Source: an uncultured bacterium
GTDB taxonomy: Bacteria; Krumholzibacteriota; Krumholzibacteriia; WVZY01
Length of the DNA stretch: 64,000 nt
Direction: 5' to 3'
Assembly: GCA_964654695.1 (NCBI GenBank)
Contig: CAZZKJ010000002.1
Span: 1,363 to 65,362, forward strand
Of the stretch, positions 27,662 to 47,910 are shown piece by piece (within the stretch, counting starts at the first letter, position 1; each line of letters begins with the position of its first letter). The notes beneath the pieces were generated by a model. The model saw nothing but the letters and a program-made list of their open reading frames with translations, was not told the DNA's origin and ran no database searches. The position numbers were made by a program, and so were the translations under genes.

Positions 27662-28357
27662 CTACTTGGAAGATGATCCGGAACGATCGTAGATACGGCG
27701 CTTGTGGCATGAAGGGGAACAGCTTCCCCCGCTTTTGTTCTGGTCCCAACTGATGCTCATCTTCCACTTTCCAAAGGGGGAACGGTCGCGTAATAGAGCG
27801 GGCTTCGGGCCGGTGTGGGGAAAATGGCAGATCTTGCACGAACGCCCCTTATCGGGGCGGCCGACGTGGACCGAGTGCAGGTTTTTATCGCCGTTGCGAA
27901 AGGAAGTTGCTTCCGTTGTAACCTTATTCGCTACAAGAGACACTTCGTGGCATGAAAAGCATAGTGCAAACGCTTCCTCGGACCACGGAGCATAAAGACC
28001 TTCAGGAAAATCCATAGTGAGCATCTTCTTGCTGCCGCTGCCGTGAGGATCATGGCACATCGTGCATCCCCCCGCTTCGATCGCACCGTGCACAACGGTT
28101 CCGGCGGCGGTTTCCTCGTGGCAGAGGAGACAAAGCGCATTGTCTTCTTCCATCAGATTGAATGCGTGTTTTTTCTCGTCTGTGAGTTCGTGGCAGTTAT
28201 CGCATCCTTCTTCGAGAATCGGGTGCTTGTTTTCCATCTCCCTGAAGTTCTCATGACAGCCGGGGGCAATGCATTCCGTTTCCTGGGAGAAAACTGGTGC
28301 CGAGAAAAGCATTGGGGTCAAAACGGCGCAAATATTAATAAAACGCACACGGTTCAT
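27662..28357 (-). CDS. Multihaem c-type cytochrome (5 canonical CxxCH plus CX3CH and CX4CH variants), secreted
   Basis: Signal peptide 'MNRVRFINICAVLTPMLFSAPVFSQE'; start chosen at ATG 28357. Motifs are CDNCH, CLLCH, CTMCHDPH, CFSCH and CKICHFPH, plus 'CIAPGCH' and 'CSPSCH'. It converges on the 12-haem gene with a 59-bp gap. Confidence 0.7.
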   Translation of the reverse strand: MNRVRFINICAVLTPMLFSAPVFSQETECIAPGCHENFREMENKHPILEEGCDNCHELTDEKKHAFNLMEEDNALCLLCHEETAAGTVVHGAIEAGGCTMCHDPHGSGSKKMLTMDFPEGLYAPWSEEAFALCFSCHEVSLVANKVTTEATSFRNGDKNLHSVHVGRPDKGRSCKICHFPHTGPKPALLRDRSPFGKWKMSISWDQNKSGGSCSPSCHKRRIYDRSGSSSK

Positions 28358-28523
28358 ATAGCTATCTCCAGGGATAAAGTCGTAACTCCCGTTCGGCTGA
28401 TTATCGGATTCCCGTTTTAAGCCGGTCGATAATACCACGTCTTTCGGCAAAATCCTATCTAATTCATGCTCGACAACGATTCTTTAACCGGTTAAATTAA
28501 ATTGCTGAGAAAGGGAGTTCCTT

Positions 28524-31944: not shown

Positions 31945-34900
31945 TTATTTACCGCGGTCAAGTAAATCATAAATCACCGGAATTGCATAGAGCGTAAATA
32001 CCGCGGAAACCATTACGCCGCCCATGGTTACAATCGCCATTACCGCTCTGAATTCGCTGCCGGCTCCGCCTAGAGCCTGCGGCAGCATGCCGATGGCGAT
32101 GGCCAGGTTGGATATGATTACCGGCCGCAGTCTGACGGGACATGCTTCTATCAGGGCTTCGCGCCGCCCCATACCCCGGTTTCTCAGGACCGAAGTATAA
32201 TCCAGAAGCAGGATGGCGTTGTTTACCACTATTCCCACCAGCATTACCAGCGCCATGAGAGAAAAAATATTAATGGTTTGCCCTGTTATGAAAAGCCCGA
32301 AACCCATACCCACCAGCCCCAGCGGAAGCGTCATCATGACCGTAACGGGATGGAGGAAGGACTCCAAAACGCCCGCCAAAACCATGTACGTAAGTATTAT
32401 TGCCAAAATAAGCGCCGTAAATATGGATGCGAATGATTCCTCCTGCATTTCCACCAGACCGCCATAGTGAACCCTGTACCCCGACGGCATTTCCACGCCT
32501 TCGAGTTTGCTCCTTATGGTTTTAACCAGCTCATTCAATGTGCCGCTCGCTATATTTGCTTCAATTCGTATAAGTTTTTGCCTGTCTTTGCGAAGAATCT
32601 GGCGCTGGGTGGATCCGAACTCGACGGAACCCAGCTGGGTAATAGGCACCATGTAATCGCCGGCGGCTATCTCGGTGGCCAGCACATCCGCAACTTCATT
32701 TCTTTCACTATCAGAATATCGAACCCGTATATCGAACTCATCATTCCCGTCACGGAAGCGCGATTGAATATCTCCTTCGTAGCCCGTCCTGAGCGCCATC
32801 GCCAGCATCAAGGAACTCAATCCGAAACGATCAAGCTCCTTTCTGTCCGGAATGAACGCAAGTTCGGGTTTTTCCTCTTTAAAGCTGGTTTGGAGACCAG
32901 ACAATCCGCGTATCGTGGCGACCGAGTCGAAAATAGTTTTCGACAGGTTTTTCAGGACTTCTATGTCGGCTCCGGTGATATTCAATACTATATCGGATTG
33001 TTCTTCTTCTCCCCCGGAGGCTTTTGCTCTTATCGTTGCCCCCGGTATCGACGCCAAAAGAGGATTAAGGGAGCTCGTGAATTCTACGATGCCTTGATCG
33101 CGCTCCTTCTTTTCAACAATCCTCAGCACTATCGTGCCGTCTTCCACACCTTTGTTCTCTCCTCCCACGGAAGCGAGGACCGATATCGTTTCGGGGATTT
33201 TTTCTAACTTGCTTTCAATTTCTTTCATTACCCTGTCAGTTTCATCGAGACTGCTGCCCGGAGGCATTTCTATTTCAATAGTGATGAGGGCTTCGTCCAA
33301 AGTGGGCATGAACTCTCCCCCTACTTTGCCCAGAAGAAAAACAGCAAAAAATAACGCCAATACCGATGCCGCCACAACGCGCGCCCGGTGGTTGAGGGCG
33401 CTTTCGAGACTGCTTTTGTACAGTGCGGTAACCGCGTTATAAAAATTGTCCCAGGATTTTTCGAATCTGTTTTTCAGGCCGGTCCCGCCTGCCGCCGGTC
33501 CGCCGGGCGATTCTTTCGGGGATCCATTATTCTTGTCCGCCCCTTCGTTGGATTCGCCATCCGCCTGGCTTCGGCTCCGGCGGGCGCGGAAGAACTTGCT
33601 CGCCAAAAGCGGCGTAAGCGTGAAGGATACGAAAAGGGAAAAAATGGTAGCAAACACCACTGTAAGACCGAACTGATAGAAAAACCTGCCCACGATTCCG
33701 GACATGAAGGCGATGGGGGTGAAAACAACGATGTTGGTAAGAGTCGACGCTACAACCGCCAGAGCTATTTCGCTTGTCCCCTCGATCGCCGCATCATCAG
33801 GGCTCTTTCCCATGTCCAGGTGGCGCATGATATTTTCCAGAACCACGATGGCATTTGTAACAAGAACGCCCACGGTGATTCCCAGGGCCATAAGCGTCAT
33901 GATGTTAAGCGTGAACCCTGCAAAATCTATCAAGAGGAACGTCGCAATCACGGATGTGGGCATCGCCACTGCGGCTATCGTCGTCACACGCAGGCTGTGC
34001 AGGAATAAATACAGCAAGATGGTTGTGAGAATGATTCCGATGAAAATATTCTGAGTAACGTCCTTTACGGCGTCCTTTATGAACTGCGAACGATCCTGCG
34101 CAACATCAACTTTATAATCGGGAGGCAATATGTCAGCAAGTTCTTCCAGCGCTGCGTACACGCCGTCGGATGTTTCAACCGTATTGGCACCCGAACGTTT
34201 CTGGATTTCAACGCCGACACTGGGCTTGCCGTTGAATCTCGCCAGATCGCGCTGGTCCTTGAATCCGTCTATTATTTCGGCGATATTTTCGAGGGCTATG
34301 GAACCATTATCCTTCAGAGGTATCCTTATTTTTCTCAACTCTTCGAGATTCTCGAATTCTCCCAGGAGCCTGAGCGTGTATTCTTTTCTTTTTTCAATAA
34401 TGCGGCCGGCCGGAACATTGAGATTTTCGGCGGCAACCGCTCCGGAAATCTGGGGAAGAGACAAACCATAAGCCCTCAGCAGACGTTTATCCACCGCTAC
34501 GTGGATCTCGCGCTGTCTTCCGCCGATAATGCCCACGCTCGCTACGCCCTCGACGCGGGACAGGTAATCTTTTATTACGTCCTTGGTGGTTTGATATACC
34601 TCGTCGAGCGGCCGCGGGCTGGAAACGGCTAGATCTATGATTGGCTCGGCATTGATATCAAACTTCTGAATGACCGGCAGCTTGGCGTCTTCGGGAAATT
34701 CGGCCGTAATAGCATCAACTTTATCTTTGACTTCGTTCGCGGCAACATCTACATCCACCCCCAGTTCGAACTCCAGGATAACCAGCGATACGTTTTCCTG
34801 CGAAATGCTTTCCAGTGTTTTGAGGTCGCTGATGGTGCTGGCCGCATCCTCGATTTTCTTGGTAATCTGGGTTTCAACTTCGTTTGGGCCGGCGCCCGGA

Positions 34901-35052
34901 TAAACCGTGGTTACAATCACAAATGGGAATTCGACATCGGGAAGCAGGTCTATTACCAGCCTCCGCCACGAAAAGAGACCGAGAACCACGAATGCCAGGA
35001 CGAGCATCGTAGTCATCACAGGTTTTTTAACCGCTGTTCTCGCAAGAAACAA
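31945..35052 (-). CDS. RND efflux transporter permease (AcrB/HAE1-type, 12 TM, two large periplasmic loops)
   Basis: 1035 aa. 'FLARTAVKKPVMTTMLVLAFVVLG' is a typical AcrB N-terminus. Duplicated TM bundles are 'LMALGITVGVLVTNAIVVLENI' and 'SLMALVMLVGIVVNNAILLLD'. Confidence 0.9.
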   Translation of the reverse strand: MFLARTAVKKPVMTTMLVLAFVVLGLFSWRRLVIDLLPDVEFPFVIVTTVYPGAGPNEVETQITKKIEDAASTISDLKTLESISQENVSLVILEFELGVDVDVAANEVKDKVDAITAEFPEDAKLPVIQKFDINAEPIIDLAVSSPRPLDEVYQTTKDVIKDYLSRVEGVASVGIIGGRQREIHVAVDKRLLRAYGLSLPQISGAVAAENLNVPAGRIIEKRKEYTLRLLGEFENLEELRKIRIPLKDNGSIALENIAEIIDGFKDQRDLARFNGKPSVGVEIQKRSGANTVETSDGVYAALEELADILPPDYKVDVAQDRSQFIKDAVKDVTQNIFIGIILTTILLYLFLHSLRVTTIAAVAMPTSVIATFLLIDFAGFTLNIMTLMALGITVGVLVTNAIVVLENIMRHLDMGKSPDDAAIEGTSEIALAVVASTLTNIVVFTPIAFMSGIVGRFFYQFGLTVVFATIFSLFVSFTLTPLLASKFFRARRSRSQADGESNEGADKNNGSPKESPGGPAAGGTGLKNRFEKSWDNFYNAVTALYKSSLESALNHRARVVAASVLALFFAVFLLGKVGGEFMPTLDEALITIEIEMPPGSSLDETDRVMKEIESKLEKIPETISVLASVGGENKGVEDGTIVLRIVEKKERDQGIVEFTSSLNPLLASIPGATIRAKASGGEEEQSDIVLNITGADIEVLKNLSKTIFDSVATIRGLSGLQTSFKEEKPELAFIPDRKELDRFGLSSLMLAMALRTGYEGDIQSRFRDGNDEFDIRVRYSDSERNEVADVLATEIAAGDYMVPITQLGSVEFGSTQRQILRKDRQKLIRIEANIASGTLNELVKTIRSKLEGVEMPSGYRVHYGGLVEMQEESFASIFTALILAIILTYMVLAGVLESFLHPVTVMMTLPLGLVGMGFGLFITGQTINIFSLMALVMLVGIVVNNAILLLDYTSVLRNRGMGRREALIEACPVRLRPVIISNLAIAIGMLPQALGGAGSEFRAVMAIVTMGGVMVSAVFTLYAIPVIYDLLDRGK

Positions 35053-35097
35053 TTTGTTCCGCCTTTTTTATAATATCTGCGGCCGTACCCGCAGGGT

Positions 35098-36210
35098 CTA
35101 TTTGCCGTTCCCTCCGGCCGATCCGTGGATCTTCACCTTCGCCCCGTCGGCAAGCTTGAATTGTCCTCTAATAACCAGTTGATCGCCCACGGAAACATTT
35201 TTCACAGCGAATCTTCGCCCATTCCCCATTCCAATATCCACTTTGGTCAAGACCGCCCTATCTTCCTTTACCAGATAAACGAAATTCCCACTTTCGCGTT
35301 TTACCAGCGCATCGCCGGGAATGGTTACAATGTTTTCCATTTTCTCTACAAGAACCGATACCGCTGCTACAAGTCCTGGCTTTAGAAGTCCATTGGGGTT
35401 CTCCGCTGTTATCTCGGCCAAAAAAAGCTTGGTTTGCGTGTCCGCCGACAGGGATACCGTAGATACCACACCCTCGATGCCGCAGTTTTCGGGATTATCA
35501 ATTGCGTCGCCGCGCGGAGTATTGAGGCAGATGAAAGCCTTTTGCCCCTTCTGCAAAAGCCCGACTTCATTTTGTCCAACGAAGCAGCGCACGCGCACGC
35601 GGCCGGTTGACGCCACCGTTGCCAGCGGCAGGCCCGGCGCCGCGGCCGTTCCTTTTGTCGCATCCACCCGGGTAACCACGCCGTCGATAGGACTCATCAG
35701 GTCTACCATTGACAACGCCTGCGTGTATTGTGATTTCGCGTTCTTGTATCCCAGACGCGCTTTTTCCAGCATCTGCGCTGAGATGGCGCCTTCCTCGTAG
35801 AGATTCTCCGAACGTTCGAGATCACGCTCGGCATTGCCGAGGGCCTGTTCCGCGAGGGCGAACTGGTGGTAGGCGTTCCCCCTGCGGTCGCGGGCAAGCT
35901 TTATAACCACATCGCCTTTTTTAACCGATTCACCCTCCTTTTTCAGTATACCGGTTACATCTATGGCCATAGAACTTACGAGTTCCACCTGTTCGTATCC
36001 CTGGATGTCGCCCAGAAGACGCATGTATCTGCTCAGGGAGTTCCTTTCAACCGTCATTACATCAACGGGAATGCCTTCTTGCGCCTGGATTTCATCGATG
36101 CTGCGGACGGGCGTCTTGCCGCGGAGCGCGATGAACCGCAGCGCAAACACGATCACCAGGAAGATAATAATAACAGCTATAACGAATCTTGCTCTTTTGT
36201 TTGCAGACAT
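35098..36210 (-). CDS. RND efflux periplasmic adaptor (membrane fusion protein, HlyD/AcrA family)
   Basis: Start placed at ATG 36210 ('MSANKRARFVIAVIIIFLV' TM anchor, AGGAG RBS upstream). Coiled-coil 'ALAEQALGNAERDLERSENLYEEGAISAQMLEKARLGYKNAKSQYTQA'. Barrel domains. Confidence 0.85.
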   Translation of the reverse strand: MSANKRARFVIAVIIIFLVIVFALRFIALRGKTPVRSIDEIQAQEGIPVDVMTVERNSLSRYMRLLGDIQGYEQVELVSSMAIDVTGILKKEGESVKKGDVVIKLARDRRGNAYHQFALAEQALGNAERDLERSENLYEEGAISAQMLEKARLGYKNAKSQYTQALSMVDLMSPIDGVVTRVDATKGTAAAPGLPLATVASTGRVRVRCFVGQNEVGLLQKGQKAFICLNTPRGDAIDNPENCGIEGVVSTVSLSADTQTKLFLAEITAENPNGLLKPGLVAAVSVLVEKMENIVTIPGDALVKRESGNFVYLVKEDRAVLTKVDIGMGNGRRFAVKNVSVGDQLVIRGQFKLADGAKVKIHGSAGGNGK

Positions 36211-36227
36211 CTTTTTGCTCCTCGTGA

Positions 36228-37574
36228 TCAATAACCTATTGCGTTTGCAAGTCTTTCCCCGGTAATTATGCACCGGTACTTCGCTTCTATATAATTTAAA
36301 CGGGCCGTAGTCAAAGCCAGCTCCGTATCACTGAGTTCTAAAGAAGTTGACACCCCGTTTCGATACCGTGCCACGGCGAGGCGGTAGGCTTCCTCCGCCA
36401 TGGCCACGGTTGCTTTCTGGCTGTTCAGATTCTTAACATCCGCCGCGAGCTCGTCATAGAGCTGAGTGATCTGCAGGGCCACCGCTTTTTCGATCTTATC
36501 CAGAGAATACCTGGCAATATTATAATCCGCTTTTGCCTGTTTTATCTTGCCGCGGTTGGCGAAACCGTCGAAAAGCGGAACCGACAGCGACAGCCCCACC
36601 CCCAAACTGCTCGCGATTTTATCCGACGAGGGAAAAAACTTGTCCGATTCCTGGCCTTCCACGAAGTAACTTCCGAACGCGGACAGGAACGGATAGTTGA
36701 AGCGCCTGGTTACTTTGTAAATTTTCTGCGCCATGTTTACTCTGAGGCGAAGGGATTGAATATCAGGACGGCTTTCGTAAGCCTTTGCGATTACGCTTTC
36801 CAGATCGTACCGGACAGATTCGAACTCGAGCGTGCCCGTGAGTTTCACCGGCGTCGACCTGTCGATACCGATCGTTCGTTTCAAATCGAGAAGCGCGAGG
36901 TTGACCGCGTTCTCCGAGGCAATCACAGCCGGCACCGTGTTTTTTACACTTACCTCGGCCCGCAGCGAATCGAAGCGGGACGCCATCTGCTGCTGAAACA
37001 TCAGCATGGTCTCTCTGAAATGCCTTTGCGCCTGAGTGAGTGTCTGCCTGCTGATTACAAGCGCTTCGCGGGCGAGAAGAACACCATAGTAGGCTTCCTT
37101 TGCTTGCAGCACCACAGTCTGCTCGACGCTTTCCGCATCTTTTTCGGAGCTTCTCAAAAAATAATCCGCGATTTTTATCGCACCGCCGATCCTGCCGAAT
37201 GCAAAAAGGGGTTGGGTCAATAACAGCGATGCGCGAAAATCGTTTTTCTCGCCGATTTCGATTTGCATTATCTCGTCGGTCTCGGGATTCGGGAAAAAGA
37301 TTACCGGCCGAAGGATGTTTCTCGTATATCCCAGTTCTGCGGACAACTTCGGCAGCGCGGAAGCAAAGGCTTCCTGTTTTTGCCCCCGGGCCTTGTCAAA
37401 CGCAGACCTGGCGATCTTTATGTCTTCATTGTGCTCGAGGGCCATCTTCACGGCCGTACCCAGGCTCAAAAAGAGAGTGTCTGTTCGGGTGTTCTCATAC
37501 GGCACTGCGTTCGCATGCACCGCCGGAAGCAGCATCGCAAGAATGATTGATATATTAATTACGCGCAAAAACAT
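36228..37574 (-). CDS. TolC-family outer membrane efflux protein
   Basis: Signal 'MFLRVINISIILAMLLPAVHA'. Two repeated OEP halves with coiled-coil regions. 448 aa. It lies immediately upstream of the adaptor and RND genes. Confidence 0.85.
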   Translation of the reverse strand: MFLRVINISIILAMLLPAVHANAVPYENTRTDTLFLSLGTAVKMALEHNEDIKIARSAFDKARGQKQEAFASALPKLSAELGYTRNILRPVIFFPNPETDEIMQIEIGEKNDFRASLLLTQPLFAFGRIGGAIKIADYFLRSSEKDAESVEQTVVLQAKEAYYGVLLAREALVISRQTLTQAQRHFRETMLMFQQQMASRFDSLRAEVSVKNTVPAVIASENAVNLALLDLKRTIGIDRSTPVKLTGTLEFESVRYDLESVIAKAYESRPDIQSLRLRVNMAQKIYKVTRRFNYPFLSAFGSYFVEGQESDKFFPSSDKIASSLGVGLSLSVPLFDGFANRGKIKQAKADYNIARYSLDKIEKAVALQITQLYDELAADVKNLNSQKATVAMAEEAYRLAVARYRNGVSTSLELSDTELALTTARLNYIEAKYRCIITGERLANAIGY

Positions 37575-37708: not shown

Positions 37709-38137
37709 TCAATTTCGCGTCGGTTCTTTTTCTTTCCAAATTGCTTCCAGGAATTCCCTGACCTTGGCCTCAATTGCGTCGCGAACCCGCCTGAAATACT
37801 CGATGGGCTTGCCAATGGGATCTTCGATGTTCCAATCAATTCTGGAGCCGATATAACCCACCGGGCAAAGACTGTTGGCCGAGCAGCAGCCCATGGTAAT
37901 CACATAATCCATTTCGTCGATAGGAACCTCACTCAGGGGTTTCGACCACTGTGTGGAAATATCCACGCCCGCTTCCGACATCACCGCCGCAGCAATGTCG
38001 CTGACCATACCGGTTGCGTTCGTGCCGGCGCTGAAGGGTTCGACGAAATCCCCCCCGATTGCCCTGGCGAATCCCTCCGCCATCTGCGAGCGGCACATGT
38101 TGCCTATGCAAACGAATAATACTTTTTTTTTCTCCAT
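37709..38137 (-). CDS. arsC: Arsenate reductase, thioredoxin-coupled LMW-PTP family (ArsC)
   Basis: 'KKKVLFVCIGNMCRSQMAEG' is the P-loop CX5R. The downstream Cys pair in 'ITMGCCSANSLCP' matches the Cys82/Cys89 relay of Bacillus/Staphylococcus-type ArsC. Start at ATG 38137 ('MEKKKVLF'). Confidence 0.7.
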   Translation of the reverse strand: MEKKKVLFVCIGNMCRSQMAEGFARAIGGDFVEPFSAGTNATGMVSDIAAAVMSEAGVDISTQWSKPLSEVPIDEMDYVITMGCCSANSLCPVGYIGSRIDWNIEDPIGKPIEYFRRVRDAIEAKVREFLEAIWKEKEPTRN

Positions 38138-38348: not shown

Positions 38349-39749
38349 TTACTGCGGATTATTGGCAAATCCGGACGGATTCACGATTCGGCGTTTTCTT
38401 AATGCCAAAGTAAAGATACCGCCCGACACCGCCAGCCCCGGAAAAATCGGTTCGATCGCGAGCGGATAACCGCCTCCGAGGCCGCTGAAAATATACGGGC
38501 TTAGAAGCCATAACAGTGAAACCCCGCCTCCGGCCGTGATCATGCTCATCGCCTCACCCGGTTTAATAACAGCATTTTTGGACATCGCCGCAATAATCGG
38601 AAAAACCAGTGCAGGAGTGCCCACTGACCCGAAATGGTGCCATATGTCCACAACGCTTCTGAGCTTCAGAGCGAAGAACACGGCAACCGCGCCACAGGCG
38701 ACAAGCGCGACGGCGCTCGATCGTTTCGAATCGTCATCCTTCCGGCCTTTGGCGCGCCAGATGATATCGCGCCCCAGCGTTATCGCGGACAAAAAAGAAT
38801 AGCTGTCGATTGTCGACATAACCGTCGCCAGGAGACCGAGTATAAAAACCGTCCCCAGCGGCGCGGGCAGGAGATTCAGTGCAAGGGCGGGAAAAGCCAG
38901 CACGGGGTCATCAAGCGCCGGCATTAAGGCCCGCGCGTAAAGGCCTACTGTGGTAGTCATGGCATCGAAAATCATCCAGAAAAATATCGATATGATGATG
39001 CCCTGCTTTGCCGTCCTGGCGCTGTTGGCCGCGAAGCACCGCTGGTAGAAGGCCGGTTCCACGAGTGTTGCCAGGGCTATCACATACCAGACAAGAACGT
39101 ATTGAGGCGAACGCCCGCCGCGCCATGTAAGGTGGCCGCCGGGAAGCATTCCCGGGAGTATCGAGATGCCCCCGTAATGAAACACCAGGTACGCCAGGGC
39201 GGCAAAAAAAGCAGCGTACATCAAAACAAACTGCAGCAAGTCGGTTCTGACCACCGAACGAAGACCGCCCCTGTACACGTAAACGATGGAAAAAAAAGTG
39301 CCTGCTATGACTCCCGCCGCCAGCGAGTAGCCAAAGATCGCTTTTATTAAAATGCCCAGCATAAGCACATAAGCGCCGGGCACCGTCATGAAAAAAATAA
39401 CCACCGCTCCTGCGATGGAAACATTCCTCCCGAATCTGCGGGCCAGCAGATCGGGAATTGTATAGTAGCTAGATTCCCGGGCCTTTTTTGCGAGGAACAC
39501 CGCGAAGGCAAACGCGGCCAGGTAATATGGAACGCCGAAAACCAGCCAGTTGGATATACCGTAGCGATACGTATACTCTCCGACTCCCAGAATTCCTCCG
39601 TACCACGTGGACACCAATGAAGCAACGAACGCCGGAAGCGTCATCGCTCGTCCCAGTACGAAGTAGTTGTCCTCGCCGTCCGATTTGCTCCGGAAGAACC
39701 CCAGACCCAGGATAAGCGCCGCGTAGACTAAAGAAACCGTAAGAATCAT
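38349..39749 (-). CDS. Sodium:solute symporter family (SSF) transporter
   Basis: 466 aa with ~13 TM helices. The N-terminal 'DYFVLGR...TLPAFVASLVSTWYGGILGVGE' region is typical of SSF/PutP/SglT-like transporters. Confidence 0.7.
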   Translation of the reverse strand: MILTVSLVYAALILGLGFFRSKSDGEDNYFVLGRAMTLPAFVASLVSTWYGGILGVGEYTYRYGISNWLVFGVPYYLAAFAFAVFLAKKARESSYYTIPDLLARRFGRNVSIAGAVVIFFMTVPGAYVLMLGILIKAIFGYSLAAGVIAGTFFSIVYVYRGGLRSVVRTDLLQFVLMYAAFFAALAYLVFHYGGISILPGMLPGGHLTWRGGRSPQYVLVWYVIALATLVEPAFYQRCFAANSARTAKQGIIISIFFWMIFDAMTTTVGLYARALMPALDDPVLAFPALALNLLPAPLGTVFILGLLATVMSTIDSYSFLSAITLGRDIIWRAKGRKDDDSKRSSAVALVACGAVAVFFALKLRSVVDIWHHFGSVGTPALVFPIIAAMSKNAVIKPGEAMSMITAGGGVSLLWLLSPYIFSGLGGGYPLAIEPIFPGLAVSGGIFTLALRKRRIVNPSGFANNPQ

Positions 39750-39758
39750 GTCAGGTTA

Positions 39759-40199
39759 TCAGACGTCGGAATGTTCGCGTTTGCTCAAGTAATAAATATC
39801 TTTGTGGAGTACATAACCGCAGGCCTTGAACAATTCGAGGCTCGGCTGGTTGTAGTCTTCAATGAGTGCGGCGTATATTTCGATCTTCTGTTCGAGTAAA
39901 TATTTTTCCGCTCGTTCGATCAGCGCCCTTCCCAACCCTTTTCTTCTTAGTGACGCATCGACCGCAAGCCTGTTTATCCATCCTTTTCTACCGTCATGGG
40001 TAACGAGTACGGCACCTGCAAGCTCGCCGCTCGAAAAAGCTCCAAAAAAACAATCACTTCCGCTATCGACGGCTCTTGTGATCCTGCCGGACAGATCGCG
40101 CCCCCTTGGCTTGAACGGCAGCCCCGCACGCTCCCATAACGCAATAATCGCGGAAACGTGCGAGGAATCGAGTTTTTTTATTTCCAGTTTATTCGGCAT
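39759..40199 (-). CDS. GNAT family N-acetyltransferase
   Basis: 'GWINRLAVDASLRRKGLGRALIERAEKYL' is the acetyl-CoA binding motif A (Q/RxxGxG/A). 146 aa. Confidence 0.75.
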   Translation of the reverse strand: MPNKLEIKKLDSSHVSAIIALWERAGLPFKPRGRDLSGRITRAVDSGSDCFFGAFSSGELAGAVLVTHDGRKGWINRLAVDASLRRKGLGRALIERAEKYLLEQKIEIYAALIEDYNQPSLELFKACGYVLHKDIYYLSKREHSDV

Positions 40200-40207
40200 C
40201 TTTCCGG

Positions 40208-41038
40208 CTAATCCAGGTTCTTGGGTTTGCGTTCGTTCAATGCCCAGTTATAATCCATGAATTTTATCTTCCATTTCCCGGAAACGAGAGCCGAGCGTAC
40301 ATCTTCAACGACATTTGCGCTTATAAAATCCATAAGCGCGCGGTCTTTCGAGCCGTATTCCTTGAACCTGCCGTTTTGCCCGTAAACACGCGCGAAGTCA
40401 TCGCCGAACCATTTGAATATCGACGATAAGTATAGTACTCCCTGTCCCGCATCGATACGGAAATTTCCCGGATCGGCAAGAAAGCGCCGGCTTTGATCCG
40501 CAAGCTGCTCTTCCAGCTTTTCCCCGCTGTAGGGTTCGCTCCTCAGGGGCGGACACGACACAGCGGCACAAACCAGGGCCATGTGAATTCGGGGCTCATT
40601 GAACTCTTTTCTCAATATGTCGTTCTCAAGGCCGTCCAGGGTCAGCTTCCTTCCTGCAGCCATAAATGTAATGCGGTCCCATGCTCCTTTTATCTCCTGG
40701 ATGCTCTTCTTCGGGTAGTTGTCTATAATCACCTTCATCGTTTGTGCGTTATAGACATTGATCCAATAGGCCAGCCGTTCGTTCCGGTCAAGACGGTTAT
40801 ATGCCGCGGACAGCAGGTGGCTGGTTTTTCCGAGAAAGCTGTAGAGCATAGCGCTGTCCGTTTTTAAGCTCTTGTAATCAACCATGCCCGTGCTGTCGGT
40901 ATGGGACTTTAGAACGGCCGCAAAATCGTCCTTGGGAAAAATCAGGCTATTTTTTTTGGCAGGAGCTTCCGATTCCAGAGCCGCCGCCACTGAAACCAGG
41001 AAAAATAATAATAAAAATGCCGGTCCTGCTTTTTTCAT
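40208..41038 (-). CDS. DUF547 domain protein with signal peptide
   Basis: Signal 'MKKAGPAFLLLFFLVSVAAA'. 'ERLAYWINVYNAQTMKVIIDNYP...SIQEI' matches the DUF547 core. The start overlaps the upstream GT2 stop by 4 bp. Confidence 0.6.
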   Translation of the reverse strand: MKKAGPAFLLLFFLVSVAAALESEAPAKKNSLIFPKDDFAAVLKSHTDSTGMVDYKSLKTDSAMLYSFLGKTSHLLSAAYNRLDRNERLAYWINVYNAQTMKVIIDNYPKKSIQEIKGAWDRITFMAAGRKLTLDGLENDILRKEFNEPRIHMALVCAAVSCPPLRSEPYSGEKLEEQLADQSRRFLADPGNFRIDAGQGVLYLSSIFKWFGDDFARVYGQNGRFKEYGSKDRALMDFISANVVEDVRSALVSGKWKIKFMDYNWALNERKPKNLD

Positions 41039-41742
41039 TGCTTGTTCTCCTTTCTTACAACGTGCCGGGGATAATGCCTGAAAATAGTACCGATTATCTT
41101 AACCCCCGCGAGCACCGTACCTTTTACGGTGCCAGAAATTTTCGAACGTCCGATCCTTTTTCTGTACCTGACCGGGACTTCCATAATGCTCATGCCGTTC
41201 ATTACGGCTTTAACCTGCATCTCTACGTTCCATCCGAAGCTCCGGTCGGTCATATTCAGCTCCGCAAGACTGTTTCTTCTGATCGCCCTGAAGGGACCCA
41301 TGTCGGTAAACCTCGCCCCGTAGAGAATTCTCATGAGCGAGCACGCGAGACGGTTGCCGAAACGCTGGTTCCACGGAAGGGCTCCCTTTTCGCTTTCGCC
41401 TAATACACGCGAACCGATCACCATGTCCGCTTCGCCCCGGACGAGGGGACCCAGAATAATCACCAGGTCTTCGGGGAAGTCGGAATGGTCGGCGTCCAGG
41501 ATCACGACCACATCTGCGTCTGCCGGCAGCGCCGCGATTCCTCGCAGGCATGCCGCTCCATACCCCCTGCGATCTTCCTTAACAACACGCGCACCCCACC
41601 GGGCGGCCGATTCGGCGGTATTATCGGTTGAGCCGTTATCGACGACGATTATATCACCAACCAGATCCTTTGGTACCTCTTGAAGAACGAGCCCGATCGA
41701 TTCTTCCTCGTTTAGAGCCGGTATGATAACCGCAGCTTTCAT
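41035..41742 (-). CDS. Glycosyltransferase family 2 (dolichol/polyprenol-phosphate sugar transferase-like, ArnC/DPM1-type)
   Basis: 'MKAAVIIPALNEEESIGLVLQEV...IIVVDNGSTDNTAESA' and the 'ILDADHSD' DxD region. 235 aa. Confidence 0.75.
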   Translation of the reverse strand: MKAAVIIPALNEEESIGLVLQEVPKDLVGDIIVVDNGSTDNTAESAARWGARVVKEDRRGYGAACLRGIAALPADADVVVILDADHSDFPEDLVIILGPLVRGEADMVIGSRVLGESEKGALPWNQRFGNRLACSLMRILYGARFTDMGPFRAIRRNSLAELNMTDRSFGWNVEMQVKAVMNGMSIMEVPVRYRKRIGRSKISGTVKGTVLAGVKIIGTIFRHYPRHVVRKENKQ

Positions 41743-41746
41743 TTTT

Positions 41747-43117
41747 TCAGCTCTTCTTAGTTCCGGCCGCCAATCGCCCTTTGCCGGCCGTAAGACCGAA
41801 CAACATTAAAAAATAAAAGGGTATATATTCGATCAACAGCACTTTCTCATCCAATACCCAGAAATGCGTATTATAATAAAAGGAGACCACGGAGTATGAC
41901 GCCGTGACCAGACCTGTAAAAATGATCCAAGCTCGGTTTGGATAGAAGCACAGAAACGGAACAATCCAGCACACGTACCACGGATAAACCGTGGGGCTGA
42001 GTAACAGGGCGCAGCCTATCACCAAATAGCTGTACCTCAGAAAATCCCGGCTCTTGTATCCCTGGAAGAGTGAAAATGCCGCGAGCAGAAGAAACAACAC
42101 TCTTCGAATCAGCATCGTATCGAGTCCGGTTATTCTCAAGAGAGTAAACGAGGCTGAGTTGAATTCCCACTGCAAAGCATAGATTTTGAGACTGCTGATC
42201 AGCTTCCCCGCCGCACCTGCAAAGGGCAAGTACCCGGCAAGAACCACCAGGACAGACAGTGCCAGCCATTTTGAATACCTCTTTTTGAAAAGAAAATACG
42301 GAGCCAGCACGCCGGAAGAATACTTCGAGAGAAACGACAGTGACAGGGCGGCGATACCGCGTCCGCATCTCCCTTTTTCCATTAATAGTATGCCCAAGAA
42401 AAGGAATAACATGCCCAGGGAGTCGAGGTGGCCCGAATGAGCAAATTCAATTACAACCAGCGGATTCCACGCGTACATGACGCAGCGCGCGGGATCGATT
42501 TTTCGCGCGGCAAGCAGGAGCACCAGGAGAACCAAAAGCATAAGATCAAGCAGCACGAAGATTATCTTCTGCACGGTAATAGATGGCTTCAGTGCCGCGC
42601 CCACGGCAAACACGCCCTGCGCCAGCGGGGGATAGATCGCTTCGAGGTCTTTATGATTTATGTTTTCATAATTATTATCGCGGAGATTCGCGAGCGCGGG
42701 ATCTTCTGGCGCGTGGGAAAAAGGGTTTTCACCTGACAGGCTCACACGCCCCTCCCAGAGATAGCGGTATATATCGTTCGACAGCACGGGCCTGCAGGGC
42801 AGAAGAACCGCACGGAAGATGACGGCGAAAATAATTATAATGAAAAGTCGCCGTCTGTAATCATTCCCGGGATTCTTGAAGATCTCAGCGACGGCCAGAA
42901 TGTAACCTGCGAATGCAGCCGCAAAGGCGGCGAAAAAACGGATGATATGAGCCCCCAGATCACCGAGAGCTGCGATATAAATGAATACCCCTGTGATAAC
43001 GAATCCCAGGAGCATTACGATCAAGGTGTTGTTTTTATTCATTTGATCGAACCGGATTGTCGGCTTGCCTCCGGGCACGAACGCTTCGTAGATCCGGACA
43101 GGCCAAAGACCCCGCAC
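41747..43117 (-). CDS. Polytopic membrane protein, probable GT-C-fold glycosyltransferase (DUF2029/GT87-like)
   Basis: At least 11 TM helices. The first-loop acidic motif region 'DIYRYLWEGRVSLSGENPFSHAPEDP' resembles GT-C mannosyltransferases. No soluble domain. Confidence 0.4.
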   Translation of the reverse strand: MRGLWPVRIYEAFVPGGKPTIRFDQMNKNNTLIVMLLGFVITGVFIYIAALGDLGAHIIRFFAAFAAAFAGYILAVAEIFKNPGNDYRRRLFIIIIFAVIFRAVLLPCRPVLSNDIYRYLWEGRVSLSGENPFSHAPEDPALANLRDNNYENINHKDLEAIYPPLAQGVFAVGAALKPSITVQKIIFVLLDLMLLVLLVLLLAARKIDPARCVMYAWNPLVVIEFAHSGHLDSLGMLFLFLGILLMEKGRCGRGIAALSLSFLSKYSSGVLAPYFLFKKRYSKWLALSVLVVLAGYLPFAGAAGKLISSLKIYALQWEFNSASFTLLRITGLDTMLIRRVLFLLLAAFSLFQGYKSRDFLRYSYLVIGCALLLSPTVYPWYVCWIVPFLCFYPNRAWIIFTGLVTASYSVVSFYYNTHFWVLDEKVLLIEYIPFYFLMLFGLTAGKGRLAAGTKKS

Positions 43118-43127
43118 GGGGTTCAGA

Positions 43128-44588
43128 TCATTTAGAATGCAGGAGACTGAGACAGAATATGTAGCAGTATCCCATCACAAAAAGCAGTATATAAGGAAGC
43201 GCGCCCCAGTTGCCAAGCAGCGCCAAAACGGTCACCGAGATGAGCATATAGAGGGCGAATGCAAATTCGGTCAGAAGGAACTTCTTGTTCGCGGTGCGGT
43301 AGATCTTGCCCTTCCAGCTGTCCTTGAGGGTCTCTATCCTGTACTTGGCGGTGCGTATAAATGGAGTCCTGCGCGAAAAAACCGCTTCGAGTACTGCACC
43401 CGCGTTGTTGAGACACATACCTATACCAAGCGCCATAATGAAAGGGATGTCTTTCAATCGCCATTTCCAATCCGGATAAAGTTCTCTTTGCGATACCAGG
43501 TAGAAAAAACTGATTGATGCGGTTGTAAAAAGGAATATTCCCATTTCAAGCGCGGGGTATTTGTGAATGGTTGCGTTGTATCTAAATATAATTGACAACG
43601 GGAGCAAAACCGACAGGAGCACCAGCAGCACGTAACAGTAGTTGGCCGTCAGGTGAAATGTGGCTTCGAGCTTGACCTTCAGCGGCGCGGAGCATTTCCA
43701 CAGCCTGGGCAGGAGCTTCTTGCCCACCTGGATCGATCCCTTCGTCCATCGGTGCTGCTGGGTTTTGAACCCGTAAATATCAACCGGGAGTTCGCTGGGA
43801 ACAACCAGTTCGGGAACGAAAGCGAACTTCCATCCCCGCATCTGCGCCCGGTACGAGAGATCGAGATCCTCGGTAAGCGTATCCCCATCCCAACCGCCTG
43901 AATCCAGGATCGCCCGCCGCCTGAATACCCCACCGGTTCCGTTGAAGTTGAAAAACCTCCCGGAATAAAACCTGGCCGTATGCTCCAAAATGAAATGCCC
44001 GTCCAGCAGAAGCGACTGCAGACGTGTAAGCAGGCTGTAGGTGCGGTTCAAGTAACCCCACCGCGCCTGCGCCATGCCGATTTTTTTATCACGGAAATAG
44101 GGCACGATCCGCTTAAGAAAATTCTCTGGGGGAACGAAATCTGCATCAAAAATCGCGATCAACTCGTCGTCGGTGTGTTCGAGCCCCTCCTTCAGCGCGC
44201 CCGCTTTGAATCCTTTGCGGTCCGAGCGGTGAATATACTGAACGCGGACCCCCCTGGCTTCCAATTCGGCCGCAGCCTTGCGGGCGATAGCCTTGGAATC
44301 ATCCGTGGAATCATCGAGGACTTGTATGCGGAGCAGTTCCCGGGGATAATCGAGATTCGCAGCAGCTTCAATGATCCGCCTGGCGACATAATATTCATTG
44401 AAAAGCGGCAGCTGCACAGTTACCGTGGGGTAGTCCTTTTCATCCAGGGAGCCGACTTCGAGCCTCTTGCCGAACTTATAATGCCTGAAATAGAGATAGA
44501 GAATGAAATACCTGTGCAGCCCGTATATCGACAGCAGAAGCAGAATGGCAAAATACAGATAAACCGTGATATCAGCTAATAGAGACAT
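43128..44588 (-). CDS. Processive glycosyltransferase family 2 (cellulose-synthase/CesA-like; QxxRW motif)
   Basis: 'IQVLDDSTDDS', 'AIFDADFVPPENF' (DxD), 'TEDLDLSYRAQ' and 'QQHRWTKG' (the QxxRW processivity motif). N- and C-terminal TM helices. 486 aa. Confidence 0.75.
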   Translation of the reverse strand: MSLLADITVYLYFAILLLLSIYGLHRYFILYLYFRHYKFGKRLEVGSLDEKDYPTVTVQLPLFNEYYVARRIIEAAANLDYPRELLRIQVLDDSTDDSKAIARKAAAELEARGVRVQYIHRSDRKGFKAGALKEGLEHTDDELIAIFDADFVPPENFLKRIVPYFRDKKIGMAQARWGYLNRTYSLLTRLQSLLLDGHFILEHTARFYSGRFFNFNGTGGVFRRRAILDSGGWDGDTLTEDLDLSYRAQMRGWKFAFVPELVVPSELPVDIYGFKTQQHRWTKGSIQVGKKLLPRLWKCSAPLKVKLEATFHLTANYCYVLLVLLSVLLPLSIIFRYNATIHKYPALEMGIFLFTTASISFFYLVSQRELYPDWKWRLKDIPFIMALGIGMCLNNAGAVLEAVFSRRTPFIRTAKYRIETLKDSWKGKIYRTANKKFLLTEFAFALYMLISVTVLALLGNWGALPYILLFVMGYCYIFCLSLLHSK

Positions 44589-44710
44589 TTCAACAAAATT
44601 GTCCGGATTTTGAGTTCGTGCTCGCTACAAAAGCCCCGGGTGCCTGCTTTAAGCTCAATTCACCCTTGCCCCGTTTCGCAGCAGGTCGGGCGGCTCGACC
44701 CCGGTATCAC

Positions 44711-45694
44711 TCAGTCCACAATCGCGCCCGCGCATGACGATCCGCTGCCCGCCGTGCATCCATAGCAGTGGCTCCCCGTCATGATCCTTCTCTCCCTGAG
44801 CGCTCCTATATCGAAATCCTTTATATGCATGGGCGCCCCGTGGTTTACGCACAATCCCAGCGCCAGGTTGAAATCGCAGTCGTAGAGTTTGCCGTCCCAA
44901 TCTACGCTCAGCTGATGGCGGCACATCAGTCCATCCACTGTCATGCTATTAAAAGCGCCGATGAGCGTGCGCATGTACTCCTTATCCTTTTTCTGGCGCT
45001 TCAAATCCGTCAGGAAGCGGCCGATGGGCATATTCGTAATCGTAAGGAGATGCGTGAATATTATATTGTAATTGTCTCCCAATTCCCGCCTGTAATCTTC
45101 TTCCAGCGCTCCCTGGCCGGGAGGCAAAACCGGCCCGGCGGGATTGTAAACCAGATTTAGCGGCAGGCCGGGCTCGATACCATAGCCGATTCCATTGAGA
45201 AGTTTGATCGCATCGATGCTTTTCTCGTAAACCCCTGCGCCGCGCTGGGCCCTTACGTTTTCTTCAAGATAACACGGAAGCGAAGCCACCAGCGACACAT
45301 CGTGATCCCGGCAAAACTCTGCCATATCTTCCATGCCCGGCTCGAGCAGCACAGTCAGGTTCGTTCTTACCTGCACGGCAATATTTTCGATCCTGAGAGC
45401 TTTTATGAAACGCCGGAAATTGGGATTCAGTTCCGGCGATCCTCCGGTTATATCAACGAGTTCACAGCCGGTATCAAGAGCCGCTCGTGTTATCATTTTC
45501 ATAGTCTCCCAATTCATCACTTCTTTGCGTTTGGGAGATGCGGATACATGGCAGTGGATGCACTCCTGGTTGCACTTCAGCCCTACATTCGCTTGAATGA
45601 TCTTGATCTCTGCATTGTAAAGCCCCTCCCCACCTTTTACAGCCACTTTTTTATCGAAGTTGTCGACCAGAGTGCGTTCCATAGCGGACCTCAC
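44711..45694 (-). CDS. Radical SAM protein with C-terminal Cys-rich tail (ArsS-like, rSAM/Cys-rich TIGR04167-type family)
   Basis: 'GLKCNQECIHCH' is the CX3CX2C radical-SAM motif. The C-terminal 'SHCYGCTAGSGSSCAGAIVD' Cys-rich tail resembles the ArsS family; the family assignment is from memory and needs an HMM check. Confidence 0.55.
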   Translation of the reverse strand: MRSAMERTLVDNFDKKVAVKGGEGLYNAEIKIIQANVGLKCNQECIHCHVSASPKRKEVMNWETMKMITRAALDTGCELVDITGGSPELNPNFRRFIKALRIENIAVQVRTNLTVLLEPGMEDMAEFCRDHDVSLVASLPCYLEENVRAQRGAGVYEKSIDAIKLLNGIGYGIEPGLPLNLVYNPAGPVLPPGQGALEEDYRRELGDNYNIIFTHLLTITNMPIGRFLTDLKRQKKDKEYMRTLIGAFNSMTVDGLMCRHQLSVDWDGKLYDCDFNLALGLCVNHGAPMHIKDFDIGALRERRIMTGSHCYGCTAGSGSSCAGAIVD

Positions 45695-47910
45695 ATTTTA
45701 ATTTTCAGTTCTTGAGCAAGAAATGCGTACACATCGCTCAGTTCTTCGATGATTTTAGATGTAGGCTTGCCCCCGCCGTGACCCGCCTTGGTTTCGATGC
45801 GGATCAGTATGGGGTTCCGGCCCGTGTCATTAGCCTGCAGCGCGGCGGTGAATTTCTTGGCGTGCATCGGAACCACGCGGTCGTCGGTGTCGGCCGACGT
45901 TACCAATGTCGGAGGGCATGTCATGCCCGGTTTGACATTATGCAGCGGCGAATACTTGTATAGAAATTTGAAGTGTTCGGGATTCTCTTCGGCATTGCCG
46001 TACTCCGGCGTCCAGTAGCGGCCTACAGTGAATTTGTGGTAGCGCAGCATATCGGTAACCGGGACCCGGCTTACTACCGCTCCGAAAAGATTGGGTCTTT
46101 GGAGCATACAGGCCGCGACCAGGAGTCCGCCGTTGCTGCCACCCATAATGGCGAGTTTTTTCGTGCTGGTGTATTTTTTCTTTATCAAGTGTTCGGCGGC
46201 GCCGATAAAATCATCGAACACGTTTTGCTTATTCCCCAGCATCCCTGCCTTGTGCCACTCTTCGCCGTATTCATTGCCGCCGCGCATGCACGCGACCGCG
46301 TATATGCCCCCCTTTTCGAGCCATGGCAGAACCGAAGTCGAAAAATACGGTTTCAGGCTGATATTGAACCCCCCGTAGCCGTAGAGGATGGCCGGATTAT
46401 CACCGTTCATCTTGATATTCTTCTTGTGGGTTATAAAAATGGGAATCTTTGTGCCGTCTTTGGATGAGGAGAAAATCTCGTGTGTCTCGTAACCGGATGG
46501 GTCGAAATCAATATCGGAGCTGCGGAACACCGCGACTTTCTCGGAACCGAAATCATAACGGTATGCCGTGTACGGAAACAGGAATGACGTGAAACCAAAA
46601 AACATTTCCTTATCCTCGCGCCTTCCCGAGAGCCCCCGCACCGACCCGACGGTCGGCAGTTCTATCTCGCGCACGAATCCGCCGCCGGTATCGAATATTT
46701 TCATTATATTATGAGCGTCGTGCATATAGGCGACAACAAGACGGTTATCAACCATAGTTGTGAAATCGATAACGTCTTCTTGCTGGGGCACGATATCGCG
46801 CCAGTTCTCTTTGCCGGGATCTTTCAAATCGACTGCGATTATTTTGCCCCGGGGCGCATCGAGCTTGGTCTGAAAATAGAATACCGTGCCAATATTATCT
46901 ATCGGAGAATACTCCGCCTCTTCCACTTCCATCAGTACCTTGAAAGGCTCGTTCGAGTTCACTTTCCGGTAGTAGATACCGTTCCTGTCATCAGTACCGT
47001 GGTAAACGTAGATAAGGAGATACCTGCCGTCGTCAGTTATCATAGGAGCGAACCCGAGTTCTTTCTGTTCGGGTCTTTCGTATACGAGCACATCCTCTGC
47101 CTGCGGAGTACCCAGTTTGTGCCAGTAAACGCGGCTGAAGCTGTTGCGGTCATCTTCGGCAACCTCGCCCTCGGCGGGGAAACGGTTGTAAAAGAATCCG
47201 GAGTTATCGTGCTTCCATGCGATCGAGCTGAATTTGCACCATTTTATCAGTTCATCGTAATCGCGGCCCTTGTCGATATCACGCACCCGTATCTCCTGCC
47301 AGTCGCTGCCGCTGGAGGACAGTCCGTAGGCGAGCAGCCTGCCGTCTTCGCTGTAGGATTGATTTCTCAGGGCTACGGTCCCGTCTTCGGAGAGCTTGTT
47401 CGGATCGATGACAACCGCCGCTTCGCCGTCCAGGGATTTTTGCATATAGAGAACCGATTGATTTTGCAGGCCGTCGTTCTTTGAAAAGAAATAGCGGTCA
47501 CCGTGTTTATAAGGCAGAGAATAGCGCGGGTAGTTCCATAGTTCTTTCATGCGCTTTTCAATCCGCGCGCGCGCCGGGATAGCATCGATGAACGAATGCG
47601 TGAGCTCGTTCTCCGCGGCGACCCAATTCATGGTTTCCTGGGACGCGGGATCCTCCATCCAGCGGTATGGATCCGGAACATCCGTGCCGTGATAGTTCGT
47701 TACGACATCGCCTTTTCGGGCCTCTGGGTATGAGAACTTCTCGGCGCTCACCTGTGTCATCAGGGAGGCCGACAGAAGTACTGCCGCCGCAGCGGCGAAG
47801 AGCTTATTCAGGGATTTCGACCGGCGTTTCGCCGCAATCTGGGGCGGATTACCAAGGGAAAGTAATGTGGGTATATAATGGAGCGGGTGATCCTGATTGT
47901 AAGTTCGCAT
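45691..47910 (-). CDS. Prolyl oligopeptidase family serine peptidase (S9A), secreted
   Basis: Catalytic Ser in 'LAIMGGSNGGLLVAACMLQRP'. Asp/His region 'LVTSADTDDRVVP...GHGGG'. The N-terminal beta-propeller has a signal-like 'LFAAAAAVLLSASLMTQVSA'. 739 aa. The stop overlaps the start of the radical SAM gene by 4 bp. Confidence 0.8.
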   Translation of the reverse strand: MRTYNQDHPLHYIPTLLSLGNPPQIAAKRRSKSLNKLFAAAAAVLLSASLMTQVSAEKFSYPEARKGDVVTNYHGTDVPDPYRWMEDPASQETMNWVAAENELTHSFIDAIPARARIEKRMKELWNYPRYSLPYKHGDRYFFSKNDGLQNQSVLYMQKSLDGEAAVVIDPNKLSEDGTVALRNQSYSEDGRLLAYGLSSSGSDWQEIRVRDIDKGRDYDELIKWCKFSSIAWKHDNSGFFYNRFPAEGEVAEDDRNSFSRVYWHKLGTPQAEDVLVYERPEQKELGFAPMITDDGRYLLIYVYHGTDDRNGIYYRKVNSNEPFKVLMEVEEAEYSPIDNIGTVFYFQTKLDAPRGKIIAVDLKDPGKENWRDIVPQQEDVIDFTTMVDNRLVVAYMHDAHNIMKIFDTGGGFVREIELPTVGSVRGLSGRREDKEMFFGFTSFLFPYTAYRYDFGSEKVAVFRSSDIDFDPSGYETHEIFSSSKDGTKIPIFITHKKNIKMNGDNPAILYGYGGFNISLKPYFSTSVLPWLEKGGIYAVACMRGGNEYGEEWHKAGMLGNKQNVFDDFIGAAEHLIKKKYTSTKKLAIMGGSNGGLLVAACMLQRPNLFGAVVSRVPVTDMLRYHKFTVGRYWTPEYGNAEENPEHFKFLYKYSPLHNVKPGMTCPPTLVTSADTDDRVVPMHAKKFTAALQANDTGRNPILIRIETKAGHGGGKPTSKIIEELSDVYAFLAQELKIKM

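Follow-up and report, generated by a model that had tools for sequence, protein, structure and literature searches.

An intact ArsS-family gene beside a putative polyprenyl-phosphate glycosylation module in a Krumholzibacteriota locus without arsM

Why does a gene for an ArsS-type radical S-adenosylmethionine (SAM) enzyme stand among membrane glycosyltransferase genes, with no arsenite methyltransferase gene (arsM) beside it? The locus, at 38349–47910, lies in a stretch of 64,000 nucleotides from an uncultured Krumholzibacteriota bacterium (assembly GCA_964654695.1, contig CAZZKJ010000002.1, positions 1,363 to 65,362), here called the window. An earlier note on this DNA had proposed that the substrate of the enzyme may be a sugar or a lipid and not arsenic. 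Comparison with related loci makes it somewhat probable, in our judgement, that the window holds a reduced variant of an extended, partly characterised arsenosugar-type cluster and not a repurposed enzyme. The placing of arsS beside glycosyltransferase genes would then reflect the trimming of a larger arsenic cluster whose relatives keep arsM, and a new, non-arsenic chemistry is unlikely.

Identity and conservation of the radical SAM protein

A hidden Markov model (HMM) check bears out the assignment to the ArsS type: the protein scores 410 bits with TIGR04167 (ArsS), whose cut-off is 300, covering profile positions 4–303 of 303, and carries the domains PF04055 (51 bits) and PF12345/DUF3641 (176 bits). 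Its motifs are CNQECIHC (CX3CX2C) and, at the C terminus, CYGCTAGSGSSCAG; the alignment columns of CNQECIHC and CYGCTAGSGSSC, both read in the translation, are invariant across relatives, among about 110 invariant positions that include CX3CX2C and a C-terminal CxxCTAGxGSSC. When columns at least 95% conserved among 81 ArsS relatives are considered (n = 101), the window protein keeps 99, and its two altered columns (A to S and F to Y) are conservative and within the family's usual range. Relatives number in the thousands at E ≤ 1e-20, the best 120 of these being 61–70% identical, bar one identical 323-residue copy (P0001 in an NCBI-derived collection). Identity to arsM-linked ArsS proteins is 63–64%, as against 57–70% across all relatives. 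A search of the PDB found no solved structure of a close relative. Nor does the protein fall in a different characterised radical SAM family, models for MoaA, SPASM maturases, HpnH and QueE matching at 19–43 bits against cut-offs of 131–850.

ArsS transfers the 5'-deoxyadenosyl group of SAM onto dimethylarsenite, DMAs(III), yielding 5'-deoxy-5'-dimethylarsinoyl-adenosine (DDMAA), an activity known for Synechocystis ArsS (PMC13598754, citing Cheng et al. 2021). The enzyme of Synechocystis sp. PCC 6803, compared via family models, resembles the window protein in being a TIGR04167 equivalog with radical SAM and DUF3641 domains, a CX3CX2C motif and a Cys-rich tail; it differs in setting, since arsS and arsM are co-transcribed there (bioRxiv 10.1101/2022.09.23.509062) whereas the window gene adjoins membrane glycosyltransferases and DUF547, with no arsM within 64 kb. 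Judged by its sequence, the window protein is an intact ArsS-family orthologue with no sign of altered function, and we infer that it catalyses the same conversion of dimethylarsenite.

Gene order in the window and its relatives

Open reading frame (ORF) listing and translation place eight minus-strand ORFs across 38349–47910, and these together with HMM families confirm the eight genes and the order that the earlier note had given. The run and the arsC-like gene beyond it are as follows.

45691–47910, minus strand: S9 prolyl oligopeptidase (PF02897 and PF00326)
44711–45682 (alternative GTG start at 45694), minus strand: arsS, radical SAM/DUF3641 protein of 323 residues (TIGR04167, PF04055, PF12345)
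44589–44710, no strand: measured gap of 122 bp, the spacer between arsS and the glycosyltransferase genes
43128–44588, minus strand: BcsA-like membrane glycosyltransferase of family 2 (GT2), 486 residues (motifs DDSTDD, FDADF, TED and QQHRW; no PilZ)
41747–43117, minus strand: GT-C glycosyltransferase (GT87/MptA_B-like), 456 residues, polytopic membrane protein (HMMs of homologues and AlphaFold2 fold)
41035–41742, minus strand: polyprenyl-phosphate GT2 (AglJ/DPM-synthase-like), 235 residues (TIGR04182 below cut-off; PDB 5mlz)
40208–41038, minus strand: DUF547 protein whose N-terminal helix is a signal or anchor (PF04784)
39759–40199, minus strand: GNAT acetyltransferase (HMM family matches)
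38349–39749, minus strand: sodium:solute symporter (PF00474, TIGR00813)
37709–38137, minus strand: arsenate reductase-like gene (arsC) of the low-molecular-weight phosphatase type (TIGR02689 at 111.6 bits, cut-off 157.6; PF01451)

From the peptidase gene to the symporter the gaps measure 8, 122, 10, 4, −4, 8 and 9 bp, the peptidase–arsS junction becoming a 4-bp overlap if arsS uses its GTG start. The tight linkage claimed previously (gaps of at most 10 bp, or 4-bp overlaps) thus stands at the other junctions (−4 to +10 bp) and breaks down between arsS and the BcsA-like GT2. In the 122-bp spacer we found no predicted terminator or promoter and no Rfam family, and its fold z-score of 0.21 is no better than that of shuffled sequence; Rfam and tRNA scans of the whole window were empty. 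As a candidate single operon, the run has one strand, gaps of at most 10 bp save the 122 bp after arsS, and no predicted terminator. It is not kept as one unit among relatives: the peptidase gene and the symporter are variable flanks, and the closest relative (L001) separates arsS from the glycosyltransferase genes. The arsC gene, which had been placed upstream of the operon, in fact lies on the same strand 3' of the symporter, 112–211 bp distant, and is therefore downstream of the gene run.

Related loci were gathered in an alignment-based scan with one genome per species, which returned 80 ArsS loci with flanks of up to 10 kb on each side (a scan of genome contigs with a single ArsS protein as query had given no matches, and the alignment was used instead). 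With L001 these make 81 loci, which we probed by tblastn with the window proteins and with sequences standing for the clusters of recurrent neighbours, chosen via all-against-all clustering and NCBIfam/Pfam scans.

Four of the relatives (L030, L032, L047 and L058) have arsM immediately 5' of arsS, all with the same downstream glycosyltransferase genes as the window. The order in L032, from Krumholzibacteriia, is S9 peptidase, TIGR04283, PHO4-like permease, arsM, arsS, the same glycosyltransferase genes and DUF547; L058 has the same neighbours by tblastn, and L047 runs TIGR04283, arsM, arsS and then the same downstream genes as far as arsC. The ArsM proteins of L032 and L047 have four of four ArsM cysteine motifs. 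Synteny with the Latescibacterota loci L164 and L166 extends from the S9 peptidase gene to an RND pump, in the order S9 peptidase, TIGR04283, arsS, secreted protein, BcsA-like GT2, GT-C, polyprenyl-phosphate GT2, DUF547 and, after further genes, GNAT, arsC, TetR, TolC, MFP and RND. TIGR04283 lies 5' of arsS both with arsM (L032, L047, L058) and without it (L007, L164, L166); the members in L007, L032, L047, L164 and L166 score as genuine, those of L164 and L166 at 224–244 bits between the peptidase gene and arsS. An S9 peptidase gene is found 5' of arsS in L001, L032, L058, L164 and L166, with one to three genes (TIGR04283, PHO4, arsM) intervening in the last four and none in L001; it appears to be a conserved syntenic flank whose membership of the pathway is not evident. 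In the closest relative, L001/L002, whose ArsS is 70% identical, the peptidase gene likewise directly abuts arsS.

Set against these relatives, the window is without TIGR04283, arsM and PHO4 between the peptidase gene and arsS, without a gene of about 284 codons after arsS and without the TetR gene. The peptidase gene abuts arsS because the first three are absent, and the 122-bp spacer precedes the glycosyltransferase genes because the 284-codon gene is absent, no remnant of it being found in the spacer. Conversely, the window has a symporter between GNAT and arsC, where no syntenic locus has an orthologue; this is a window-specific insertion. By gene order, then, the window is a putative trimmed copy of a Latescibacterota-type arsenic cluster, and arsM and TIGR04283 were probably lost here rather than gained elsewhere, because arsM–arsS linkage spans many phyla.

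Several neighbours vary or persist in their own ways. The 283–296-residue secreted protein directly 3' of arsS (weak DUF3108 match; L164 11028–11879, L166 9436–10290, L001 9196–10086) has orthologues of 57–62% mutual identity in these three loci. Orthologues of arsC, 52–59% identical, occupy the corresponding place in L007, L022, L047, L164 and L166, and the pairing of GNAT with arsC (39759–40199 and 37709–38137 in the window) is kept in Latescibacterota L164 and L166, with GNAT orthologues 53–54% identical; an ArsN2 identity for the GNAT protein was rejected (19 bits, cut-off 125). The PHO4-family permease (PF01384, 1.3e-63; L006 1547–2659, L009 8762–9913, L012 8777–9940, L032 6332–7483) separates arsM from arsS in Acidobacteriota and precedes arsM in Krumholzibacteriia; it may be an arsenate uptake gene. 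Further out, the window flanks encode a multihaem (doubled CXXCH) cytochrome-like protein (27662–28450), an ADP-forming acyl-CoA ligase (29793–31931) and TolC–MFP–RND efflux (31945–37574), the ligase and efflux genes sharing synteny with the Latescibacterota relatives. An 8.5-kb metagenome contig (L163; JGI sample 3300002231, contig KVRMV2_100041395) matches the window in gene order and has a 100% identical DUF547; on it arsS, GT2 and GT-C are fragmented, probably by sequencing frameshifts.

The glycosylation module and its association with ArsS

The best PDB sequence match of the BcsA-like GT2 is cellulose synthase BcsA (1.8e-25). It shares with BcsA-type processive enzymes the D, DxD, TED and QxxRW motifs and flanking transmembrane segments, and differs from them in its length of just 486 residues and in having neither PilZ nor a BcsB partner. 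Orthologues 65–77% identical lie 3' of arsS in L001, L007, L022, L030, L032, L047, L058, L164 and L166. The protein also has a weak match to GT21 (ceramide glucosyltransferase), because of which a glycolipid product may be as possible as a polymer.

The GT-C protein has no match in the Pfam copy searched, even at E = 1, while its homologues bear PF26314 (MptA_B) and PF09594 (GT87). Its AlphaFold2 model (pLDDT 90.8, pTM 0.90) retrieves ALG6, GPI-MT-I, PimE, ArnT and ALG3 in Foldseek at probability 1.00 and TM 0.39–0.55, and every one of these top matches is a transferase that uses a polyprenyl- or dolichyl-phosphate sugar. Enzymes of the GT-C fold take polyprenyl-phosphate sugars as donors. The 235-residue GT2 has TIGR04182 (AglJ) as its best curated match, at 149 bits and below the cut-off of 325, and aligns over residues 1–205 with dolichol-P-mannose synthase (PDB 5mlz, 3.8e-11). 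Adjacency or fusion to GT-C supports a putative polyprenyl-phosphate role for it; a GT-C–GT2 fusion occurs in L164 and several of the homologues listed. Neither window GT2 reaches the TIGR04283 cut-off of 182 bits (44.9 bits for the 235-residue and 19.9 bits for the 486-residue protein). Sequence and model comparisons together suggest a classic pairing, in which the small GT2 is the donor synthase and GT-C the transferase at the outer face. ArnC/ArnT, GtrB/GtrC, Ppm1/PimE and DPM synthase with the ALG/GPI mannosyltransferases likewise have a cytoplasmic-face GT2 beside or fused to GT-C; they differ from the window in that no flippase gene was identified in it, and in that an association with ArsS and DUF547 is undescribed for them.

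The DUF547 protein has a hydrophobic helix at its N terminus and the motif H-x-A-x-V-C-A-A-x-x-C-P, which is invariant. It has no PDB sequence match, and its AlphaFold2 model, though confident (pLDDT 90.6), matched no fold in the PDB below E = 0.001. That its cysteine pair binds trivalent arsenic, or takes part in redox chemistry, is speculation. Our literature search found no paper tying DUF547 to radical SAM enzymes and none on bacterial DUF547. A carbohydrate-related setting of the domain with no ArsS nearby is seen in L172 (3295–5961), where one protein joins DUF547 to a glycoside hydrolase family 15 domain, next to a second DUF547, GT-C and polyprenyl-phosphate GT2.

Neighbours within 10 kb of ArsS were counted in the 81 loci, the survey of homologue contexts that the earlier note had called for.

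VTT/TVP38 membrane protein: 40 of 81 loci
MerA-like FAD oxidoreductase (NF004991): 35 of 81
TIGR04283: 24 of 81
DUF547: 22 of 81, directly 3' of arsS in 17, in several phyla
ArsM-type methyltransferase: 16 of 81
TIGR04282: 16 of 81
GT-C: 12 of 81
Polyprenyl-phosphate GT2: 11 of 81
MsrB: 10 of 81
5'-Methylthioadenosine phosphorylase (MTAP) with a metallo-β-lactamase (MBL)-fold gene: 8 of 81, all Poribacteria
BcsA-like GT2: 7 of 81

DUF547, GT-C and polyprenyl-phosphate GT2 thus occur with ArsS across several phyla, and the order ArsS, BcsA-like GT2, GT-C, polyprenyl-phosphate GT2, DUF547 recurs in Latescibacterota, Krumholzibacteriia and one distant lineage. Gene fusions tie the parts more closely. 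In L067 a single protein combines an orthologue of the polyprenyl-phosphate GT2 with TIGR04282 and TIGR04283, tblastn finds the same three-domain arrangement in L011, L018, L038 and L071 (five loci in all), and TIGR04282–ArsS fusions occur in L052 and L063. A distant locus, L144, brings together BcsA-like GT2, ArsS, GT-C, TIGR04282 and polyprenyl-phosphate GT2; its ArsS is only 41% identical to that of the window, yet scores 362 bits with TIGR04167. (The genes flanking ArsS at 11472–14874 in L144 encode a NapH-like membrane protein of the ferredoxin type and a radical SAM protein of the B12-binding kind.) The known TIGR04167/TIGR04282/TIGR04283 cassette is echoed in the window's relatives, which carry TIGR04283 5' of arsS, and in the fusions of its GT2 subfamily elsewhere; unlike that cassette, the window has neither TIGR04282 nor TIGR04283. 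These comparisons indicate that the association of ArsS with the glycosylation module is real, conserved and not accidental; to that extent the earlier note is supported. The only prior hint of it is that NCBIfam names TIGR04282 and TIGR04283 'arsenosugar biosynthesis' glycosyltransferases: a literature search returned no paper describing ArsS with a polyprenyl-phosphate glycosylation module and DUF547, none on TIGR04282/TIGR04283, and no relevant ones on DUF2064 or arsenosugar glycosyltransferases.

ArsS itself turns up in many uncultured phyla, among them Latescibacterota, Krumholzibacteriia, Acidobacteriota, Planctomycetota, Poribacteria and Nitrospirota. Its ArsM neighbours have all four cysteine motifs in 15 of 16 cases and three in the other, and ArsM-linked loci are scattered across the entire ArsS tree (neighbour-joining, with poorly resolved deep nodes). 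VTT/TVP38 and the MerA-like FAD oxidoreductase are the commonest neighbours, in about half of L003–L082, and are sometimes fused (for example L009 11893–14176 and L170 8186–10483); tblastn did not find VTT or MerA-like genes in the window. In the Poribacteria loci L044, L049, L050, L056, L059, L061 and L078 (ArsS mostly at about 10001–10963), MTAP lies divergently 5' of arsS and an MBL/RNase-Z-like gene directly 3'. For the removal of adenine from the ArsS product, MTAP is an obvious candidate.

Competing readings of the locus

A reduced arsenosugar-type cluster could work as follows. ArsS would still make DDMAA, from dimethylarsenite supplied either by an arsM at another site in the genome or by the environment. 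The polyprenyl-phosphate GT2 would load a sugar onto a polyprenyl phosphate carrier, and GT-C would pass that sugar on at the membrane's outer face, where DUF547 would act too; the carried sugar may be arsenoribose from the ArsS product, and the BcsA-like GT2 may supply or extend a glycan or glycolipid acceptor. A natural isoprenoid-linked arsenoriboside, phytyl arsenosugar, is known (PMC10456119), as a precedent only. From gene context and models we prefer a module that acts on the ArsS product to one that is merely adjacent, a coupling that is only putative because the module also occurs without ArsS.

A number of observations weigh against this reading. The window has no arsM: tblastn with four ArsM-type neighbour proteins from related loci gave noise only, in agreement with the earlier note, and the same kind of search found no PHO4, TIGR04282, TIGR04283 or MTAP (these searches, like those for VTT and MerA-like genes, covered the 64-kb window). 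In L001/L002 arsS is parted from the glycosyltransferase genes by about 7 kb of other, unrelated genes, part of them on the opposite strand. Going the other way, a scan of metagenomes that started from the BcsA-like GT2 gave 80 homologues of 46–69% identity, of which 79 have no ArsS nearby, L144 being the only one that does; GT-C is nearby in 8. A reverse sample of DUF547 took four loci on long contigs with flanks of 6–8 kb, and in three of them no ArsS lies within that distance. Over the same range, loci in Symploca (a cyanobacterium) and L172 carry GT-C, polyprenyl-phosphate GT2 and DUF547 free of ArsS, and L171 has DUF547 beside an FAD oxidoreductase (flavoprotein), again without ArsS; L170 has DUF547 with ArsS and a VTT–flavoprotein fusion nearby. 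In the ArsS tree, the deep nodes of which are poorly resolved, the window falls outside the clade whose ArsS precedes BcsA-like GT2. Finally, ArsM is found in 5 of 10 loci that carry GT-C and 11 of 54 elsewhere, a difference that is not significant (p = 0.10). Because sets of GT-C, polyprenyl-phosphate GT2 and DUF547 occur without ArsS, as in Symploca and L172, they are a module in their own right, of which ArsS is a frequent and not an obligate neighbour.

The ArsS-free loci, the rarity of ArsS beside the BcsA-like family (1 in 80), the interrupted L001/L002 loci and the window's own 122-bp spacer at the arsS–glycosyltransferase junction all suit an account in which an ordinary arsenic ArsS happens, in this lineage, to adjoin an unrelated module for an envelope glycan or glycolipid. 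We regard such bare synteny as possible, though clearly less probable than a working cluster; it leaves DUF547 directly 3' of arsS in 17 loci of different phyla, the fusions that join polyprenyl-phosphate GT2 to TIGR04282 and TIGR04283, the fusions that join TIGR04282 to ArsS, and the same gene combination in the independent lineage of L144 to be accounted for.

That ArsS has been turned to a 5'-deoxyadenosyl or deoxy-sugar modification of an acceptor (sugar, lipid or polysaccharide) that the adjacent glycosyltransferases produce, as the earlier note supposed, is improbable in our view. Radical SAM transfer of 5'-deoxyadenosyl to a lipid has a precedent in the adenosyl-hopene transferase HpnH; the window protein is not of that family, matching its model at just 19.6 bits against a cut-off of 225. 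The absence of arsM from 64 kb and the conserved glycosyltransferase linkage do speak for the idea, and with arsM within 10 kb in only 16 of 81 loci most family members lie outside the contexts examined by experiment. Against this, the TIGR04167 score is well over the curated equivalog cut-off, the protein has not diverged (99 of 101 conserved positions kept, with conservative changes at the other two), and sister loci with the same glycosyltransferase genes have arsM and TIGR04283 directly 5'. Non-arsenic chemistry is unlikely because relatives with these genes carry arsM and ArsS itself shows no divergence. Of the two things that together had been named as telling against the proposal, an arsM elsewhere and orthology with arsM-linked ArsS, the second is borne out by the identity of 63–64%, as high as that to other relatives, and by the 99 conserved positions. 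Very improbable, we think, is a functionless arsS decaying after the loss of arsM, TIGR04283 and the 284-codon gene: although these three cluster genes of relatives are missing around it, the ORF is intact with its conserved residues, L001/L002 keeps a 70%-identical, full-length ArsS also without adjacent arsM and TIGR04283, and arsS persists in Latescibacterota loci that have no adjacent arsM (L007, L022, L164 and L166).

The steps that follow ArsS in arsenosugar and arsenolipid biosynthesis are adenine removal, activation of the arsenoribose and its attachment to glycerol, lipid or isoprenoid, and we know of no enzymes assigned to them. The neighbours described here offer candidates: MTAP, TIGR04282 and TIGR04283, polyprenyl-phosphate GT2 with GT-C, and DUF547. 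What seems to be new is the conserved association of ArsS with polyprenyl-phosphate glycosylation and DUF547, ArsS chemistry and the arsM linkage in Synechocystis being already known. A bolder suggestion, which we hold to be doubtful, is that ArsS together with DUF547, GT87-like GT-C, AglJ-like polyprenyl-phosphate GT2, TIGR04282/TIGR04283, VTT/TVP38 and the MerA-like flavoprotein might constitute a widespread, undescribed envelope pathway of uncultured, mostly non-phototrophic phyla. It would place an ArsS-derived 5-deoxyribosyl unit on polyprenyl phosphate and, outside the cytoplasmic membrane, attach it to a glycan or lipid; where arsM is not local, the group installed might not be dimethylarsinoyl. 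The window is a reduced example, and its main value is that it tests, by nature's own experiment, whether ArsS and the glycosyltransferase module persist without a local arsM.

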